DNA of 64,000 bases, from the NCBI RefSeq assembly GCF_044324785.1, contig NZ_CP172127.1; one strand, written 5' to 3'. The notes under the pieces were generated by a model. That model had not been told where the DNA came from and searched no databases. It saw only the letters and a program-made list of their open reading frames with translations. A program made the translations under genes and the position numbers. Source of the stretch: Escherichia coli. GTDB lineage: Bacteria; Pseudomonadota; Gammaproteobacteria; Enterobacterales; Enterobacteriaceae. Below are positions 51,938 through 61,764 of the stretch, in pieces; positions within the stretch are counted from its first letter, which is position 1, and every line of letters starts with the position of its first letter.

Positions 51938-54411
51938 TTAAGAATCAGCCTGACTCGGGATCAGTTTTTGCCAGATAACTGAAACGTATTTTGCCTGGTA
52001 ACGGGCGTCATCAAGTGCATTATGGCGCTCACCTTCGAATGGAATAGCCGTTCTGGCATCGAAGTCTATGGCTTTCCCCAGCTCAACGATTGTGCGTACA
52101 TCGCGATCGTTGTAGTAACGCCACGGGCAGGGGATCCCCTGCCGTTCGTATGAACGGCGCAAAATCGTGTTGTCGAAGTTGGCTCCATTTCCCCAAACCT
52201 GAACAAAAAATTCACCGGAGTTTTCGTCGATAAATTCCCGCAATTGTAACAGTGCATCATCTAACGGGATTTCATCGGTCATAATGGCCGATTGCGCTTC
52301 GCGTGATTGCTCTTAAGCCACCATTTAATGGTGTCCCGATCAATGACTCCGCCAGCAGTTTCCAGATCGATAGTCTTACTAAATTCCGGTCCCATATCTC
52401 CGGTTTGCGGATCGAAAAATATTGCACCTATTGAGATGATCGGGGCATCAGGATTTTTTCCCATGGTTTCAAGGTCGATCATTAGATGGTCACACGTCCT
52501 GCTGGTGGATGTGATTTCGTGATGACCGTTCACCTTAATTGAGTGATCTGCCGTCTCGCCAGTTTCATTATCGCTATCGTGATGCTGATTGCCGCCAGCG
52601 TTCTCCTTGTGTGGATGTTCAGCGCCTTCCATTTCCTCCGGATCATCTTCCTGAACTTCAACCTGATACTCTTCATCGAATGTTTCTTGGTATGTTGCGT
52701 CGCCCATCACCGCGCCACAATCAGGGCAGTTGCCGCCGCCGGTCTGACCGCAAGCGGTGCAGACTTTTTCCACTTCCTGTTGCGCCACTGATTCAGGCTG
52801 TTTCGTTTCTGGCTCGTTTTGTAACGCATTTGGGCTGTTTTGTTCCGCTTTTTGGTAGTTCCGTTCCGATTCATGCTGGTTCTGGTTCACAGAATCGCGG
52901 GTCTGGATCCCCTTAACCCATTTCGGATCATTCGGGTCACTAATCCCTTCAACAAATTCACCACGTGATGCAGCAAGCAACTTATCGGCGTCAGGCTGGC
53001 TGATATTGGCTGCCTGCATAATTTTGTTTACTTCGTCAGCGGTAACTTTTATCGGCTCTGGTTGTTCTGAATCTTCAGCGGTATCTACATTTTGCGGTAA
53101 GCCCGTGTATGTGCCATTTTTTCGGGCAAAATATTCTTCTTTTGTGATTTCAGTGGCGCCAGCAGCCAGTGCCTTATCCAGACCAGAAAGTTTGTTTGCG
53201 CGACCGTATTTTTCTCCGTCCTTATCTGCGAAGAGGAAATAGAACGGCCCCTCACGCTCTACAGATGGTTCAGCTTCCGGTGCGGTTTCATTTTTTGGGA
53301 TATCAGATACCTCAGTTTCCACTGCATCAGTTTGTGTTTCTGATGACTTGAGAACATCAACAGTGCCCAGGTCTGTTTCTTCATTCTCAAACACGCCCTT
53401 TGTCGTCAGGTATTCGCAGATATATTTGTTCAGTGCTACGGGATCTTTGTGAATGTCGATCGGACGCTCACGGACAAGGCCAAAAATAGTTTGGCGGTCG
53501 TAGCGAAGGGCATCAGGCTGTTTGCGTATTGATGCCGAGATACGCTTCCAGTCTTCGCGGTCGTTGTCGATAACTTCATTTTTTGCCCAGCGATGGATGC
53601 TGCCGTCAATGTTTCCGGCATCCACATCACCAGGCCAGAGAGCGTAGGCCAGTTCGTCATCCAGTGTTTTCCATGTCTGCTTGTATTCGCGATGAATGGC
53701 AGCAATGACCGGGCTGATTTTTCCTGTTGAATTTTCAGTGTACTGTTGATTGGCTCTGGCGCGGGCGAGATCAACAACAGACGTGTATTTTCCGGTTTCC
53801 TTGCGTTCACCTTCGCGACGTTTTTTCCAGATGCGCATCTCTGCCTGAATTTCGGGCCATTTAGCACCAGGAATACATTTATGCTTAACCCACCCAATGG
53901 CGTGCAACTTAAGCTCCGGATACATGGCGTTAACTTCTGGCATTTTCATCAACGCTTCAACGATATGTCCGTTGAATGTTGCCATGTCTTCCTGCAACAA
54001 TTCCTGTGCGCTAATAACCATATCAACGGTGATGTTTTCACATGTGTCGAACTTAACCATGACAGCGTTCTGTACTTCAGGGGCCAGCTTGTCAAAAGTG
54101 ACGTTCATCGGATCGGATTCAGTCTCAACCGGGACAAAAGAAGCAGACTCCTCATCCCAGCGGTTTTCCTGCATATATTCAGCATCCCATGAATCGAGGG
54201 CAGGGCGGGGTATACCAGGTTTATCCTCGCAGACAATAAATTTATAAGCGCAGTCCTGAGCAGCCGGATAATGTTCCAGGAATTGCCAGTGAAATTTTGC
54301 TCGAGCACGGCGTTCGTCGCCAGCTTCAATGGCTGTGGCTACAGCCACAGCGCCTTCTTCCCTTGTTGCCAGTTCGTCAGGAATAGCGGCGCAAATAAAG
54401 ACTTTACTCAT
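51938..54411 (-). pseudogene. RecE-family (exodeoxyribonuclease VIII-like) gene with C-terminal DEDDh exonuclease domain, split by a frameshift
   Basis: ORFs 52279..54411 (710 aa) and 51938..52282 (114 aa) overlap by ATGA; Exo I motif (HLMIDLETMG) is in the upstream ORF, Exo II/III (FGNGANFDNT, HNALDDARYQAKY) in the downstream ORF; frames differ by 2 nt around 52310-52311. Confidence 0.75.
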
Positions 54412-54534: not shown

Positions 54535-54696
54535 CTAGTGAATAACTTTATCGACCGGGTAACAGTTACCGGGAATTTTCTGTTCGGTTGCTGCAGTCAT
54601 ACACTCCTGCATTGTCCTGTGAACACTGACTGCAATATCAACTGGCACTCCGGAAACAAGAAAAACTGTCAGAACAAGCGCAAATGCTGAATTCAT
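54535..54696 (-). CDS. ydfD: small membrane protein, YdfD-like (prophage lysis protein family)
   Basis: 53-aa product MNSAFALVLTVFLVSGVPVDIAVSVHRTMQECM...; ATG overlaps dicB stop (ATGA); assignment by position and partial recall. Confidence 0.6.
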   Translation of the reverse strand: MNSAFALVLTVFLVSGVPVDIAVSVHRTMQECMTAATEQKIPGNCYPVDKVIH

Positions 54697-54881
54697 TGTG
54701 CACATCCTTTTGGCATCAGACGTAAACGAGCCAGCATTGAAACAATGCATATTTTATTTAATAGCTCCCGTTCTTGTTTTCTCTTGTTAATGGCATCTTC
54801 AGTAAATACAGGGTTACTGATAGTGACACCAATTTCAAAACAACCTTCAGACGTATTAACGTTTGGTAATAACGTTTTCAT
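54693..54881 (-). CDS. dicB: cell division inhibitor DicB
   Basis: 62-aa product MKTLLPNVNTSEGCFEIGVTISNPVFTEDAINKRKQERELLNKICIVSMLARLRLMPKGCAQ, recognised DicB. Confidence 0.9.
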   Translation of the reverse strand: MKTLLPNVNTSEGCFEIGVTISNPVFTEDAINKRKQERELLNKICIVSMLARLRLMPKGCAQ

Positions 54882-55055
54882 TATCGCGCCCTCAACAATG
54901 AGTTTTGTGATGCGGTGCCTGGTGCCTCCAGGTGACGTTAACCAGTTAACAATTAACGCCGGATACAGAGAATCCACCCATAACACTGTTTTTGGTTTTA
55001 ACTGTTCCGCGTGCGCTCAGCCGCATTCACCACATCACAAAATTCACTTTAAAAA

Positions 55056-55108
55056 GGGCGGCAGAGCAGTCACGGAGTAAAACTGATACCGCCAAACGTC
55101 ACCAGAAA
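55056..55108 (-). ncRNA. dicF: DicF small regulatory RNA
   Basis: Minus strand reads TTTCTGGTGACGTTTGGCGGTATCAGTTTTACTCCGTGACTGCTCTGCCGCCC followed by TTTTT; recognised DicF with 3' GC hairpin. Confidence 0.88.
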
Positions 55109-55448
55109 ATTGATAACAGAGGGCGTTGCAGCGGGGTTGTCACTTAAGCGTATGGTCAACCTGACAACCCGGTGTCCTCAACGGGGAAGGAATAACCCCG
55201 CCATACTTACCGCCGCGCCATTTCGCGGGTTGCCACAACCGGAAGCGCACGGTCGACGAAAATTTAACGACAGGCTATCTATGAACCAGCTACCTCGCCG
55301 TGCGCTTTCGCGTTATGGTCTGACTTTTCAGGGAAATATCCTTTCAGTAAACTGTCAGTGCCGGATGCTCACCCGTGTCCGGCGCACGCACTCCACCTCA
55401 CCCGTGGAGAACTCCTTAATTACCAACCTTAGCTTCGTTGGTTAGCTA

Positions 55449-55667
55449 TTAACGCGGGTATGTAATCATTCTGGCAATGCTTAATGCCGCTGCTTTTTCC
55501 AGATTGGTGATATCCTGCTCCAGAGAGAACAGATTTTCAGCCTGCTTAGCCCTGGCTTCATTAGCCCATTTCAGATCCTGCGCTGCATTAATTTTCTGGT
55601 GCATCCACTCATAAAGTTCATCATCGGTATAGTCTGGCGCGATGATAACGGGTTCTCGTTTCTGCAT
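55449..55667 (-). CDS. ydfC: prophage small protein, YdfC-like
   Basis: 72-aa ORF between ydfB and dicF; assigned by size and position in the dicB operon. Confidence 0.6.
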   Translation of the reverse strand: MQKREPVIIAPDYTDDELYEWMHQKINAAQDLKWANEARAKQAENLFSLEQDITNLEKAAALSIARMITYPR

Positions 55668-55697
55668 ACTGATTCCTTGCGGTGCTGTTTCGCTTAT

Positions 55698-55826
55698 CAG
55701 CCGTTAGATTTTGCCGAACTGGAAAGCGCCTGTTTAAATTCGCTGAAGCTGAGAGCTTCTTCGCCTTCGGCAAGGCCTTCGAAGTATTCTTCGTAAGCCT
55801 TTTCCATGATTGTGTCGAAATCCATA
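55698..55826 (-). CDS. ydfB: prophage small protein YdfB
   Basis: Not in ORF track (42 aa): MDFDTIMEKAYEEYFEGLAEGEEALSFSEFKQALSSSAKSNG; starts right after ydfA stop. Confidence 0.7.
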
Positions 55827-55982
55827 TCACCCACCTGAATTTCTTTCCAGCCAGCGACGCGCTCCAGATTCGGTTTTAAACGTTTTGCTTTTGGTATACG
55901 TCATTGCGGTGAACGTGCCGTCCTGGTTTGGAAACACGCCGTACACCAGAGATTCGTTGTTGCCAAGATCGATAGTATCCAT
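55827..55982 (-). CDS. ydfA: prophage small protein YdfA (DUF1391)
   Basis: Start at internal Met MDTIDLGNNESLVYGVFPNQDGTFTAMTYTK... giving 51 aa; first gene after dicA. Confidence 0.75.
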   Translation of the reverse strand: MDTIDLGNNESLVYGVFPNQDGTFTAMTYTKSKTFKTESGARRWLERNSGG

Positions 55983-56095
55983 GCTGACCTCATTTCCCCT
56001 TAACGCCGGGGTAGCGGAACTGTTTGCTGAGAACACCGTGCGGTGTCTTGATGGAAAATAATTTAGAATAACCTAACATGAGAGGCAAGTGTTTT

Positions 56096-56113
56096 TGTTA
56101 GATTGATCTAACA
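56096..56113. promoter_or_regulatory. Operator-like palindrome TGTTAG-N6-CTAACA in the dicB-operon promoter region
   Basis: TGTTAGATTGATCTAACA with flanking T5/A5, between dicA stop and ydfA start. Confidence 0.6.
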
Positions 56114-56149
56114 AAAAGGGTGGGCGCAACTAATCACTTGAAAAGAATG

Positions 56150-56557
56150 TTATTTTATTGATTTATTTTTACGCGCTTTAAGCATTTCTTCGAAGAGTTT
56201 GTTGAAGTTTTCTACTCTTGCGCGCATTTCAGACAGCAAGGCTTCCTGCTCGGAAGATGGAAGAGCATCGAATAATTCGATCAATTCTTTGTGGTTGGGA
56301 GTTAGCTCTGTTTCCACATGAAGTTCTTGTGCAGGCACTGGTGCCTTGTCTTCGTCACCAAACATTAGCCATGTAGGTGAGCACTTCAGAGCATCCGCTA
56401 AAGCAAACAATCGTTTTCCGACTGGCTGGGTTTCGTCTCTTTCCCATTGTGAAATTGTGACGTGAGCAACTCCAGCGAGGCGCGCGGCTTCTCGTTGTGT
56501 TAAGCGTAATTCTTTTCGTCGCGCCAGAACTCGCTGGCCCAGGGTTCTTGTATCCAT
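56150..56557 (-). CDS. dicA: HTH-XRE repressor, DicA-like (cI-type)
   Basis: 135-aa ORF with N-terminal HTH (LRLTQREAARLAGVAHVTISQWERD); same length and architecture as DicA but diverged from the K-12 sequence as I recall it. Confidence 0.8.
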   Translation of the reverse strand: MDTRTLGQRVLARRKELRLTQREAARLAGVAHVTISQWERDETQPVGKRLFALADALKCSPTWLMFGDEDKAPVPAQELHVETELTPNHKELIELFDALPSSEQEALLSEMRARVENFNKLFEEMLKARKNKSIK

Positions 56558-56579
56558 AGTTAGGTAATTCTAATTTTTC

Positions 56580-56624
56580 TTGACTTAGGTATCCCGCGCA
56601 CAATAATGTTAGAAAAGTCTAACA
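56580..56624 (+). promoter_or_regulatory. Putative dicC promoter (-35 TTGACT, 16-17 bp, -10 AATAAT) overlapped by operator TGTTAG-N6-CTAACA
   Basis: Hexamers and the palindrome TGTTAGAAAAGTCTAACA at 56607-56624 read directly; a weaker third site GTTAG-N6-CTAAT at 56559-56576 overlaps dicA start. Confidence 0.55.
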
Positions 56625-56634
56625 AGAGGGGGAT

Positions 56635-56865
56635 TTGATGCTTAAAGTTGACGCAATTACTTTTTTTGGCAGCAAAACAAAGCTTGCCAATGCCGCAGGA
56701 GTGAGGCTGGCAAGTGTTGCTGCTTGGGGGATACTGGTTCCTGAAGGTCGCGCGATGCGTCTACAGGAGGCATCTGGCGGGGAGCTTCAGTATGATCCCA
56801 AAGTTTATGATGAATATCGTAAGACGAAGCGGGCGGGGCGGTTGAACAATGAAAATCACTCCTGA
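56635..56865 (+). CDS. dicC: Cro-like regulator DicC
   Basis: 76-aa ORF divergent from dicA (MMLKVDAITFFGSKTKLANAAGVRLASVAAWG...). Confidence 0.75.
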   Translation: MMLKVDAITFFGSKTKLANAAGVRLASVAAWGILVPEGRAMRLQEASGGELQYDPKVYDEYRKTKRAGRLNNENHS

Positions 56866-57370
56866 ACAGGCTCGTGAGGCTCTGGATGCCTGGATATGTC
56901 GACCAGGAATGACACAGGAGCAGGCGACGATATTAATCACTGAAGCATTCTGGGCTTTGAAAGAGCGCCCGAACATCGATGTTCAGCGTGTCACAGATGA
57001 AGGTGGCGCGGTTGATCAGCGAGCGCTTGGTGTTAATCGAGTGAAGATATTCGAACGCTGGAAGGCTATCGACACCAGGGATAAGCGTGAAAAGTTCACG
57101 GCGCTAGTGCCTGCGATTATGGAGGCTATCCGGATTAGTGATTTCAGGTTGTATCGTGAAATTACTGACGGAAAAAGCATCACGTGCATGATCGCCGGGT
57201 TAAACAAAGAATATGGCGATGTGGTGGAGTCCGGACTGCTTTTTGCTGATCCTGCCGTAGTGGATCGTGAAACTGACGAACTTATAGAAAAAGCAATTGC
57301 TTTCAAGCTTGCGTATCGACAGCAATACCAACAAAAAGCTGGATGGAATTATGAGCCTTCTTTTTGCTGA
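56849..57370 (+). CDS. hypothetical prophage protein at the cII-equivalent position (possibly YdaT-like)
   Basis: 173-aa ORF whose ATG overlaps the dicC 3' end; no recognisable motifs. Confidence 0.5.
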   Translation: MKITPEQAREALDAWICRPGMTQEQATILITEAFWALKERPNIDVQRVTDEGGAVDQRALGVNRVKIFERWKAIDTRDKREKFTALVPAIMEAIRISDFRLYREITDGKSITCMIAGLNKEYGDVVESGLLFADPAVVDRETDELIEKAIAFKLAYRQQYQQKAGWNYEPSFC

Positions 57371-60464: not shown

Positions 60465-60798
60465 ATACAGCGAACTCCATTGGTTTAGTTGGATATTTAC
60501 TGTGCTGGACAAAAACGGTTTGCGGGGAAATCTTAGTTAAGTAGAATGACTGCGGGTGCTTGAGGCTATCTGCCTCGGGCACGAACACCAACGGCAGGTA
60601 GAGAAAAGCCCCAGTTAACATTACGCGTCCTGCAAGACGCTTAACATTAATCTGAGGCCAATTTCATGCCAGACACATGTAGGTTAGCCTCTTACGTGCC
60701 GAAAGGCAAGGAGAAGCAGGCTATTGTTAACACCAAGCTGTAATGTCCCCTTTGAACCATTCTAAAATGTCCCCAGACAATTCTCTGGGGGATTTTTC

Positions 60799-61764
60799 AT
60801 GACCAAAGAAACTGTTACGATGAGTCATAAGGAACTCCACCGACTTCAGATTATTCAGGAGTCAATTAATCGACATATTACTCAGGAACAAGCTGCGGCA
60901 CGCATTGGCATTTCTATTCGGCAGGTTAAACGTCTGGTGCAACGGTATAGAAATGAAGGGCCTTCTGGTCTGGTTTCCCACCGACGTGGAAAGCGTCCTA
61001 ATAATTCCTTTTCTACTGAATTCAGAGCAACAGTAATTTTACTCCTCAAAGGCCGTTACGCTGATTTTGGACCTACGTTTGCGTGCGAAAAATTGCGCGA
61101 GATACACGGTTTATCTTTATCCGTTGAAACTCTCAGAAAGTGGATGATAGAAGAGGGGGGTATGGCGTGAACGCCGTCGTAAAATTGCCCGTATATATCA
61201 ACGCCGCATGCGACGACCATCTTACGGTGAACTGATCCAGATTGATGGCTCACCTCATGACTGGTTTGAAAATCGAGGCCCCAGATGTACACTGATCGTT
61301 TTCATTGATGATGCCACCAGTGCGTTGATGGCGTTGCGTTTTGTGCCTGCTGAAACAACCCGGGCTTACATGGAAACCCTCCGGGGTTACCTTAATGATC
61401 ATGGCGTACCGCTCGCTCTCTACTCTGATAGACACAGTATATTCAGGGTAAATAACCCAGAGCGGGAAGGTGAGCTGACCCAGTTCACTCGTGCGATAAA
61501 GACACTGGGCATCGAGCCAATCCATGCCAACAGCCCGCAGGCAAAAGGGCGGGTAGAGCGCGCCAATCAGACACTACAGGACAGGCTGGTCAAAGAAATG
61601 CGGCTTCAGAATATCAGTGATATTGAAACAGCAAATGCATGGTTGCCGACCTTTATTGAAGCCTATAACAACCGGTTCGCTACGTCGCCTCGTACTACTG
61701 ATAATGCTCATCTTGATGTGCACCATTCTGAAGAGGAACTGGGTTATATCTTCAGCCTACAGGC
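60799..61764 (+). pseudogene. IS481/ISNCY-like DDE transposase gene (HTH plus rve core), frameshifted at a G6 run and interrupted by IS903
   Basis: ORF 60799..61170 (HTH) and frame-shifted ORF opening at 61151 (…IQIDGSPHDWFENRG…RVERANQTLQDRL); frames would fuse if the G6 run at 61155-61160 were G5; coding sequence broken at 61764. Confidence 0.7.

Follow-up and report, generated by a model that had tools for sequence, protein, structure and literature searches.

The dicA–dicC/dicBF locus of the cryptic Qin prophage of Escherichia coli K-12, reportedly treated also by Bejar and Bouche in 1988 and by Faubladier in 1990, is the described system with which the present locus was compared. The sources used for the K-12 locus are Yun (2012; PMC3441716) and Ragunathan and Vanderpool (2023; PMC10448788). 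The K-12 operator Oc was shown to bind DicA, one change within CTAACA being enough to inactivate it, and the operators Om and Oa gave no DicA binding in vivo (PMC3441716). DicC was detected by ChIP on both sides of dicA (PMC11430063). The small RNA DicF is cut from the dicBp transcript by RNase E/RNase III and represses ftsZ (PMC10448788). For the repressor C2 of phage P22, DNA contacts by Val33 and Gln37 are cited in PMC5175364.

The DNA analysed here is a stretch of 64,000 nucleotides from E. coli (hereafter, the window). Its segment 54535–56865 contains ydfD, dicB, DicF, ydfC, ydfB, ydfA, dicA, and dicC in the same order as in K-12, with dicC alone on the plus strand and all the others on the minus strand. 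The prophage is of the Qin type, adjoins rspB, and agrees with K-12 Qin in chromosomal site and gene order. The lambdoid immunity layout, of presumed function, is present in the form of divergent repressor and cro genes and operators common to the PR-like and PL-like promoters. A sequence-only reading of this DNA had described a dic module under lambda-like control, in which dicA and dicC diverge and each of the two promoters has an operator, and all the elements that it named were found in their places, the switch being lambda/P22-like. The feature is an ordinary, already catalogued E. coli Qin division-inhibition cassette with a swapped-in repressor region, and no new system. We consider it probable, with good confidence, that the locus is part of a Qin-type lambdoid prophage beside rspB, namely its immunity and early-left region, in which the dicBF operon is standard and the dicA/dicC cassette is a common, alternative one acquired via recombination. 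Nothing at the locus alters the present understanding of the dic system, and its practical value is small.

The dicBF operon

The upstream part of the operon, on the minus strand, is composed of ydfA (55827–55982; 51 aa, DUF1391; 49 of the 51 residues as in K-12), ydfB (55697–55825; 42 aa, 100% identical to K-12), and ydfC (55449–55667; 72 aa, annotated by RefSeq in strain WAT; 69 of the 72 residues as in K-12), the three proteins being 96–100% identical to those of K-12. The interval between ydfC and dicB, taken whole, is 99% identical to K-12. Within this interval, the untranslated segment between ydfC and DicF (55109–55448, minus strand) would belong to the polycistronic DicF precursor, its role in processing being taken from K-12 work (PMC10448788). 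The DicF RNA itself (from 55056 to 55107 or 55108, minus strand; 53 nt) matches Rfam RF00039 over model positions 1–52 of 52 with 76.7 bits (gathering score, 48; E = 3.6e-15), and the call of DicF made from the sequence alone is upheld by this match. The comparison with the K-12 copy showed 100% identity throughout the RNA, the terminator, and the flanks. In its fold, 15 unpaired bases at the 5' end are followed by the terminator hairpin and then by UUUUU.

The cell-division inhibitor gene dicB (54693–54881, minus strand) encodes a protein of 62 aa, as had been read, which is 100% identical to K-12 DicB and scores 132.8 bits against NCBIfam NF049927 (cut-off 100). The proposed coupling overlap was also found: in the ATGA at 54693–54696, the TGA stop of dicB overlaps the ATG of ydfD, as read from the sequence. 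The ydfD gene (54535–54696, minus strand) is a truncated lysis-protein allele, of which the product of 53 aa is identical to K-12 YdfD (63 aa) in 51 of 53 aligned residues and has lost the 10 C-terminal residues by a premature stop (CAG-to-TAG at 54537). This nonsense change is rare, the exact 61-mer being present in 10 of the 3,402 genomes that have that stretch. N- and C-terminal deletions of merely 1–5 residues are known to impair lysis by YdfD (PMC8835842), and the 53-aa YdfD, short of the intact 63 aa, is predicted to be attenuated. The earlier description of the cassette as intact is therefore correct for DicB and DicF, both identical to K-12, but not for ydfD, and since ydfD is truncated, the dic module is not fully wild type.

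DicA, DicC, and their promoters and operators

The dicA gene (56150–56557, minus strand) is present as an alternative allele encoding 135 aa, identical to RefSeq WP_000381212.1, an accession annotated in strain WAT. The expectation of a DicA with the length and layout of the K-12 protein but substantially diverged in sequence was borne out, because only 75 residues are identical in 137 aligned columns (54.7%), and identity is as low as 47% in the N-terminal domain. The protein matches the NCBIfam DicA model NF007257 with 224.7 bits (cut-off 101), residues 1–134 being aligned on profile positions 1–134 of 135. In Pfam, HTH_3 alone was found (residues 12–64), with no peptidase or LexA/S24 autocleavage domain, and residues 1–71 align without gaps to the DNA-binding domain of P22 C2 (E = 1e-18). 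As judged from these matches, DicA belongs with the short HTH repressors of the P22 C2 kind and lacks a self-cleavage domain. An Ala-Gly dipeptide is located at residues 29–30, within the HTH, in this protein devoid of a peptidase domain. In RefSeq, DicA of the window type is named merely “helix-turn-helix domain-containing protein”, despite clearing the cut-off of the DicA family.

The divergent, Cro-like dicC (56638–56865, plus strand; 75 aa) matches NCBIfam NF007282 over the full length (165.8 bits; cut-off 130) and is 85.5% identical to K-12 DicC. Every difference is located within the first ~32 residues, including three positions of the recognition helix, and the remainder is identical. 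In front of dicC, a promoter-like site (56580–56607, plus strand; TTGACT, 16 nt, AATAAT; a match to 10 of 12 consensus positions) lies at the same position as the K-12 dicCp (TTGACT...TATCTT). The operator equivalent to Oc (56606–56625; ATGTTAG-AAAAGT-CTAACAA) begins on the final base of the -10 of dicC, and 13 of its 14 half-site positions are the same as in the verified K-12 Oc (TTGTTAG-N6-CTAACAA).

The putative promoter of the dicB operon, dicBp (56060–56088, minus strand), consists of a -35 TTGCCT (56083–56088), a 17-nt spacer, and a -10 TAAATT (56060–56065). It was placed by alignment with its position-equivalents in K-12 (TTGACC-17-TAATCT) and allele type 4 (TTGACG-17-TAAATT; see below). 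Its hexamers are weak and stayed under the threshold of a consensus promoter scan, which did not recover it. A distal operator (56095–56114), located 6 bp upstream of this -35, is perfect in the 20-bp palindrome frame (TTGTTAG-ATTGAT-CTAACAA), whereas its K-12 counterpart is imperfect (TTGTATG-CTATAG-CTAACAT). A promoter-proximal degenerate operator (56061–56078; ATTTAG-AATAAC-CTAACA, a match with two mismatches; K-12 counterpart, GATTAG-CCATGA-CTAACA) is situated between the two hexamers of dicBp, with overlap of the -10. Another degenerate site (56558–56575; AGTTAG-GTAATT-CTAATT) abuts the start codon of dicA. By position, it corresponds to the K-12 sites that are unbound by DicA in vivo, and by analogy with K-12 it may be a site for DicC.

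The exact motif TGTTAG-N6-CTAACA is present only at 56096–56113 and 56607–56624 in the whole 64 kb, against 0.01 expected from shuffled sequences, none of which reached two. Three such sites had been claimed, but a third exact operator was sought and rejected for the 64 kb, the two degenerate sites making up the rest. Neither DicA nor the full operator sequences are identical to K-12, and identity of the operators is confined to the half-sites. Most positions of the spacers differ between the window and K-12 (AAAAGT vs TTATGA in Oc, and ATTGAT vs CTATAG in the distal dicBp operator).

By homology with K-12, for which the regulatory model is given in PMC10448788, a DicA dimer would bind to the TGTTAG-N6-CTAACA operators, of which one lies directly against the dicC promoter -10 and a pair brackets the -35 in front of ydfA, and upon this binding both dicC and the ydfABC–DicF–dicB–ydfD transcript would be shut off. 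Loss of DicA, or its inactivation by the antirepressor Rem, would allow the Cro-like DicC to lock the switch on. The long transcript would then be processed to the 53-nt DicF, blocking translation of ftsZ and manX, and DicB, also produced, would direct MinC against FtsZ rings.

The immunity cassette and its alleles

In a sliding-window comparison with K-12, the identity falls from 0.90–1.00 to 0.33–0.80 between ~56050 and ~56745, and is 1.00 again thereafter. The replaced immunity cassette, a mosaic segment of ~690 bp (~56055–56745), contains the operators of the dicB promoter, dicA, the dicA–dicC spacer, and the first ~36 codons (the 5' third) of dicC. Its edges are sharp, the change taking place within a few tens of bases, and the flanks are 95–100% identical to K-12. 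Among 5,426 complete E. coli genomes, the dicA allele of the window is carried by 516 at a nucleotide identity of at least 99%, and three other alleles are similarly common (726, 751, and 591 genomes, at an identity of at least 95%). Altogether at least four alleles, each of 135 aa and each highly uniform, occupy the dicA locus between identical flanks, and the K-12-based statements on “DicA” apply to just one of them.

The allele of the O157:H7/PPompW type and the type-4 allele of other E. coli prophages both resemble that of the window in the 135-aa DicA, the flanks, and the two-plus-two operator layout. The O157-type DicA is 66% identical and is accompanied by operators CCTTAG-N6-CTAAGG, while the type-4 DicA is 50% identical, carries Ser33/Leu37, and is accompanied by operators ATTGAG-N4-CTCAAT. 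Among isolated phages, the closest cassette is 88.9% identical and belongs to a partial “phage Rac” record annotated with dicA/dicC, the others being ~70% identical and of the O157/PPompW type. This allele series, with identical flanks and with co-varying operators and contact residues, is a handy system for the study of repressor–operator specificity, and could reveal whether the Rem antirepressor is allele-specific.

The divergence of DicA looks like a recombinational module swap between related immunity cassettes. Rapid divergence of dicA in place from the K-12 sequence, with no replacement of the cassette, would agree with the sameness of length, layout, and promoter/operator positions across all the alleles, but is hardly credible when the identity drops abruptly, over no more than a few tens of bases on either side, from ~97–100% to 33–80%, when four discrete and internally uniform alleles are joined to the same flanks, and when a related cassette is found in other prophage backgrounds. 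The diverged dicA could also be the non-functional relic of a decaying, cryptic prophage, in which the operon is silenced otherwise, for instance by nucleoid proteins. Lesions are indeed carried by the prophage, both in the window (a frameshifted exonuclease in addition to the truncated ydfD) and in strain WAT (pseudogenes and an IS fragment in the replication region), and PMC10448788 discusses Fis and Hfq as silencers of Qin. Such a relic is nevertheless highly improbable, given that the dicA reading frame is intact at 135 aa and matches the curated DicA model over its full length above the cut-off, that the allele is near-invariant (at least 99%) across the 516 genomes, and that perfect palindromic operators are kept at both promoters. 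DicB and DicF are intact as well, and because both are toxic upon derepression in K-12, selection for a working repressor is expected.

Operator specificity, the antirepressor, and related systems

Since the half-sites and the presumed base-contacting residues match those of K-12, the DicA of the window and that of K-12 most likely recognise one and the same operator sequence. Val33 and Gln37 (P22 C2 numbering) are common to the DicA of K-12, the window, and the O157 type, all with TTAG cores. In type 4, these residues are replaced by Ser and Leu and the operators read TGAG/CTCA, so that residues and half-sites are both changed. The recognition helix of the O157 type is the same as that of the window, yet the outer half-site bases differ (CCTTAG), indicating that residues outside the recognition helix matter. 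For the P22 and 434 repressors, central operator bases that are not contacted influence the affinity. With the N-terminal domain of DicA at 47% identity, the different spacers, and such effects of central bases, cross-recognition between the window and K-12 alleles is not guaranteed.

The suggestion in the sequence-only reading of a different immunity specificity amounts to a heteroimmune allele, in which the diverged DicA and the N-terminus of DicC would form a separate immunity, discriminating via the 6-bp spacer (indirect readout) or the flanking bases despite common half-sites. The low identity of the N-terminal domain, the three differences in the recognition helix of DicC, and the altered spacers speak for it, as do the O157-type operators, in showing that specificity can sit outside the recognition helix. 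In addition, the exchanged unit holds the repressor, the cro HTH, and all the operators, the pattern expected if co-variation is required. We regard such heteroimmunity as unlikely, though conceivable, because 13 of the 14 half-site positions equal those of the verified K-12 Oc, the site in front of ydfA matches perfectly, and the presumed contact residues, Val33 and Gln37, are identical to K-12. A true change of specificity at this locus is exemplified by type 4, with clearly different contact residues and half-sites.

The number of genomes with both the window and O157-type alleles was estimated as ~85 against ~78 expected for independence, on the assumption that every hit of 60–80% identity represents the O157 type, and is consistent with compatibility of the two alleles. 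Co-occurrence was rejected as a test of homo-immunity between the K-12 and window alleles, since both use one attachment site and would for that reason be mutually exclusive regardless of immunity.

No match to rem, relBE, or hokD was obtained in the window by tblastn, the window ending at flxA, before rem. In the near-identical prophage of strain WAT, Rem is 100% identical to K-12 Rem, and beside the type-4 allele it is 94% identical. By analogy with WAT, which in its core genome reaches only ~98% identity with the window, rem is presumed to be present also in the strain of the window. Identity of the window with strain WAT, for which a 2.5-kb match first looked 100%, was rejected by this ~98% of the core chromosome and by three differences in the prophage arm (an insertion of 2 bp, one T within a run of T, and a single SNP). 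A tentative proposal, to which we give a low probability, is that either a pair of DicA proteins 45% different from each other shares half-sites and antirepressor, or immunity, with the half-sites identical, is told apart by the spacer or indirect readout alone. If the former is true, the target of Rem would lie in the conserved C-terminal part of DicA (62–82% identical across the alleles), and prophages of the Qin type with several different immunities could be induced together by one signal.

The K-12 dicA–dicC/dicBF locus of Qin is like that of the window in the chromosomal site by rspB, the gene order, and the promoter and operator positions, and differs in its surroundings, where the window has a YdaT-family gene and a longer exonuclease reading frame in place of the K-12 remnants ydfX and ydfE. 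Divergent repressor and cro genes and palindromic operators with a TTA(A/G) core are common to the window and the immC region of P22 (c2, cro). The P22 immC operators are 18 bp long with a TTAA core, and the window half-site TGTTAG is unlike the P22 half-site, ATTTAAG. P22 C2 is longer than DicA (216 vs 135 aa; lengths from PMC10448788), and unlike C2, DicA is without a LexA-like self-cleavage domain (Pfam result; PMC10448788). In this respect DicA of the window resembles the Gifsy-type repressors (GfoR/GfoA; Lemire 2011, as cited in PMC10448788), which are short HTH proteins without an autocleavage domain, and the likeness extends to a gene for an antirepressor, Rem, which is located within the same prophage in strain WAT and of which the product may act on the window DicA.

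Gene content of the dic module

The dic genes in the region 54535-56865 are arranged in the same order as in K-12, with dicC alone on the plus strand and all the others on the minus strand. YdfA (51 aa, 55827-55982; 49/51 residues identical), YdfB (42 aa, 55697-55825; 100%), YdfC (72 aa, 55449-55667; 69/72), and DicB (62 aa, 54693-54881; 100%) are 96-100% identical to the K-12 proteins, whereas DicC (75 aa, 56638-56865) shows 85.5% and DicA (135 aa, 56150-56557) only 54.7% identity, bearing out the divergence of DicA suspected in the sequence-only reading. DicA, DicC, and DicB all cleared the curated NCBIfam cut-offs for their own names. The module itself is the already known dic module, and the immunity allele that it carries is a common one that has been catalogued.

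The DicF RNA (53 nt, 55056-55108) called in the same reading was recovered by Rfam model RF00039 over the full model, with 76.7 bits against a gathering score of 48 (E = 3.6e-15), and folds into a 15-nt unpaired 5' arm followed by a hairpin and a U-run. The 567-bp interval between ydfC and dicB is 99% identical to K-12, and since DicF and its terminator are 100% identical, the ftsZ-pairing region is the same as in K-12. The ydfA-ydfC segment is mosaic among strains: in other E. coli prophages (L005, 1340-2571; L004, 1285-1819), unrelated small open reading frames variously take the place of ydfA, ydfB, and ydfC or lie between them, one of these encoding a putative ECs_2282-family zinc-binding protein, while DicF and dicB are constant.

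The stop codon of dicB and the start codon of ydfD overlap in ATGA at 54693-54696. The description of the cassette as intact does not hold for ydfD (54535-54696), in which CAG of K-12 is changed at 54537 to the nonsense codon TAG, leaving 53 aa instead of 63 (51/53 identical to K-12, with the 10 C-terminal residues absent). The exact 61-mer spanning this change was found in 10 of the 3,402 genomes having that region. Cells survive the expression of YdfD lacking 1, 2, or 5 C-terminal residues (PMC8835842), and because these smaller deletions already permit survival, the window copy is probably lysis-attenuated.

Replacement of the immunity cassette and operator specificity

Sliding-window identity to K-12 was 0.90-1.00 up to about 56050, 0.33-0.80 up to about 56745, and 1.00 thereafter; every difference in DicC is confined to the first ~32 residues. 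Within the replaced ~690 bp lie both operators in front of ydfA, the whole dicA, the spacer separating it from dicC, and the third of dicC that encodes the HTH. Judging from this profile, the divergence of DicA is a module swap, with the ~690-bp unit corresponding to a classic lambdoid immunity cassette.

The exact sequence TGTTAG-N6-CTAACA occurs twice in the 64 kb (56096-56113 and 56607-56624), against 0.01 expected from shuffles, and two degenerate operator-like sites were identified at 56061-56078 and 56558-56575; this two-plus-two arrangement is common to all four dicA alleles compared. On the dicC side, a promoter-like TTGACT-16-AATAAT (56580-56607) is directly followed by ATGTTAG-AAAAGT-CTAACAA. 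On the ydfA side, a degenerate site lies between the -35 and -10 hexamers of a putative minus-strand promoter, TTGCCT-17-TAAATT (56060-56088), and the -35 is preceded, at a distance of 6 bp, by a perfect TTGTTAG-ATTGAT-CTAACAA. At 56091, the T-run between the -35 of this promoter (dicBp) and the distal operator consists of 5 T against 6 T in WAT, a strain with a near-identical prophage, shifting the operator-to-promoter spacing by 1 bp.

The verified operator Oc of K-12 (TTGTTAG-N6-CTAACAA) is bound by DicA in vivo, and binding is lost by a single change in its CTAACA arm (PMC3441716). Its half-site positions are matched at 13/14 in the window equivalent of Oc and at 14/14 in the ydfA-side site. 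Residues 1-71 of DicA align without gaps with the DNA-binding domain of P22 C2, of which Val33 and Gln37 participate in half-site recognition (PMC5175364). Both residues are kept in the K-12, window, and O157 (PPompW) type alleles, the operators of which all carry the TTAG/CTAA core. The fourth allele, type 4, has Ser33 and Leu37 together with operators of ATTGAG-N4-CTCAAT; because it alters both, a real specificity change at the dic locus is seen in protein and DNA alike. By this comparison, the window allele is without such a visible change relative to K-12, although the operator spacers differ and the N-terminal domain of DicA is only 47% identical to K-12. The different immunity specificity once considered for it finds no support when operators and contact residues are compared. 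The O157-type allele shares the recognition helix of the window allele, yet its half-sites are CCTTAG, indicating that residues outside this helix contribute; one candidate would be the start of helix 2, TQR in the window and K-12 alleles and SQA in the O157 type.

Frequency of dicA alleles and relation to Rem

Of 5,426 complete E. coli genomes, 516 carry the window dicA at a nucleotide identity of 99% or higher. RefSeq names its product (WP_000381212.1) only "helix-turn-helix domain-containing protein." Comparison of other loci with the same flanks gave at least four distinct 135-aa alleles. At 95% or higher identity, the K-12 type was present in 726 genomes (125 more at 80-90%), the window type in 522 (29 more at 90-95% and 14 at 80-90%), the O157/PPompW type in 751 (none at lower identity), and type 4 in 591 (176 more at 90-95% and 10 at 80-90%). 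Among the records of the phage collection, a partial "phage Rac" came closest (88.9% identity, annotated dicA/dicC); PPompW prophages were ~70% identical.

DicA of K-12 is without an autocleavage site and is antagonized by the Qin antirepressor Rem (PMC10448788). HTH_3 was the sole domain found in the window DicA. In WAT, rem is located ~1.5 kb past the right end of the window (L009, 31937-32188), and its product is 100% identical to K-12 Rem, whereas DicA is 55% identical; in the further loci L010 and L011, Rem identity is 94% beside a type-4 dicA and 69% beside the O157-type dicA. At 95% or higher identity, rem was present in 2,266 genomes, well above the count for any one dicA allele, and its linkage to a single allele is therefore not tight. 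Should Rem act on the window DicA, its target is probably the C-terminal part, which is better conserved across alleles (62-82% identity). The four-allele series with unlinked Rem offers a modest lead for specialists.

Prophage setting in comparison with WAT and K-12 Qin

Core E. coli chromosome, from add to rspAB, makes up the first ~50 kb of the window, and the prophage begins next to rspB with integrase, excisionase, and exonuclease genes. Its arm shares 99.7-99.95% identity with the WAT prophage arm, but the core genomes are only ~98% identical, and thus the window strain is not WAT. The large exonuclease gene downstream of ydfD (52279-54411, minus strand) encodes 710 aa against 823 aa in WAT; a 2-bp CT insertion relative to WAT, at 52310-52311, causes a near-3' frameshift that removes the C-terminal exonuclease domain. 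This frameshift could be genuine, or it could stem from a sequencing error. At 60554-60725 (plus strand), the hok/sok antitoxin RNA sok was matched by Rfam with 99.8 bits, and no intact hok-sized open reading frame follows it. An HTH open reading frame (60799-61170) lies 3' of the match, and in WAT a fragment of an ISEsa1 transposase comes after this frame. The hok/sok locus, left without annotation in WAT, may be an IS-disrupted remnant.

K-12 Qin occupies the same chromosomal site beside rspB. The YdaT-family gene overlapping the end of dicC is full-length in the window (56849-57370, plus strand; 173 aa), whereas K-12 retains no more than the 93 codons of its 5' end, in the form of the pseudogene ydfX (97.8% identical); the K-12 deletion begins at about window position 57128. 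The WAT prophage, with the YdaT-family gene, replication-region genes, relBE, hokD, rem, an antiterminator, lysis genes, terminase, and head and tail genes, is much more complete than K-12 Qin.
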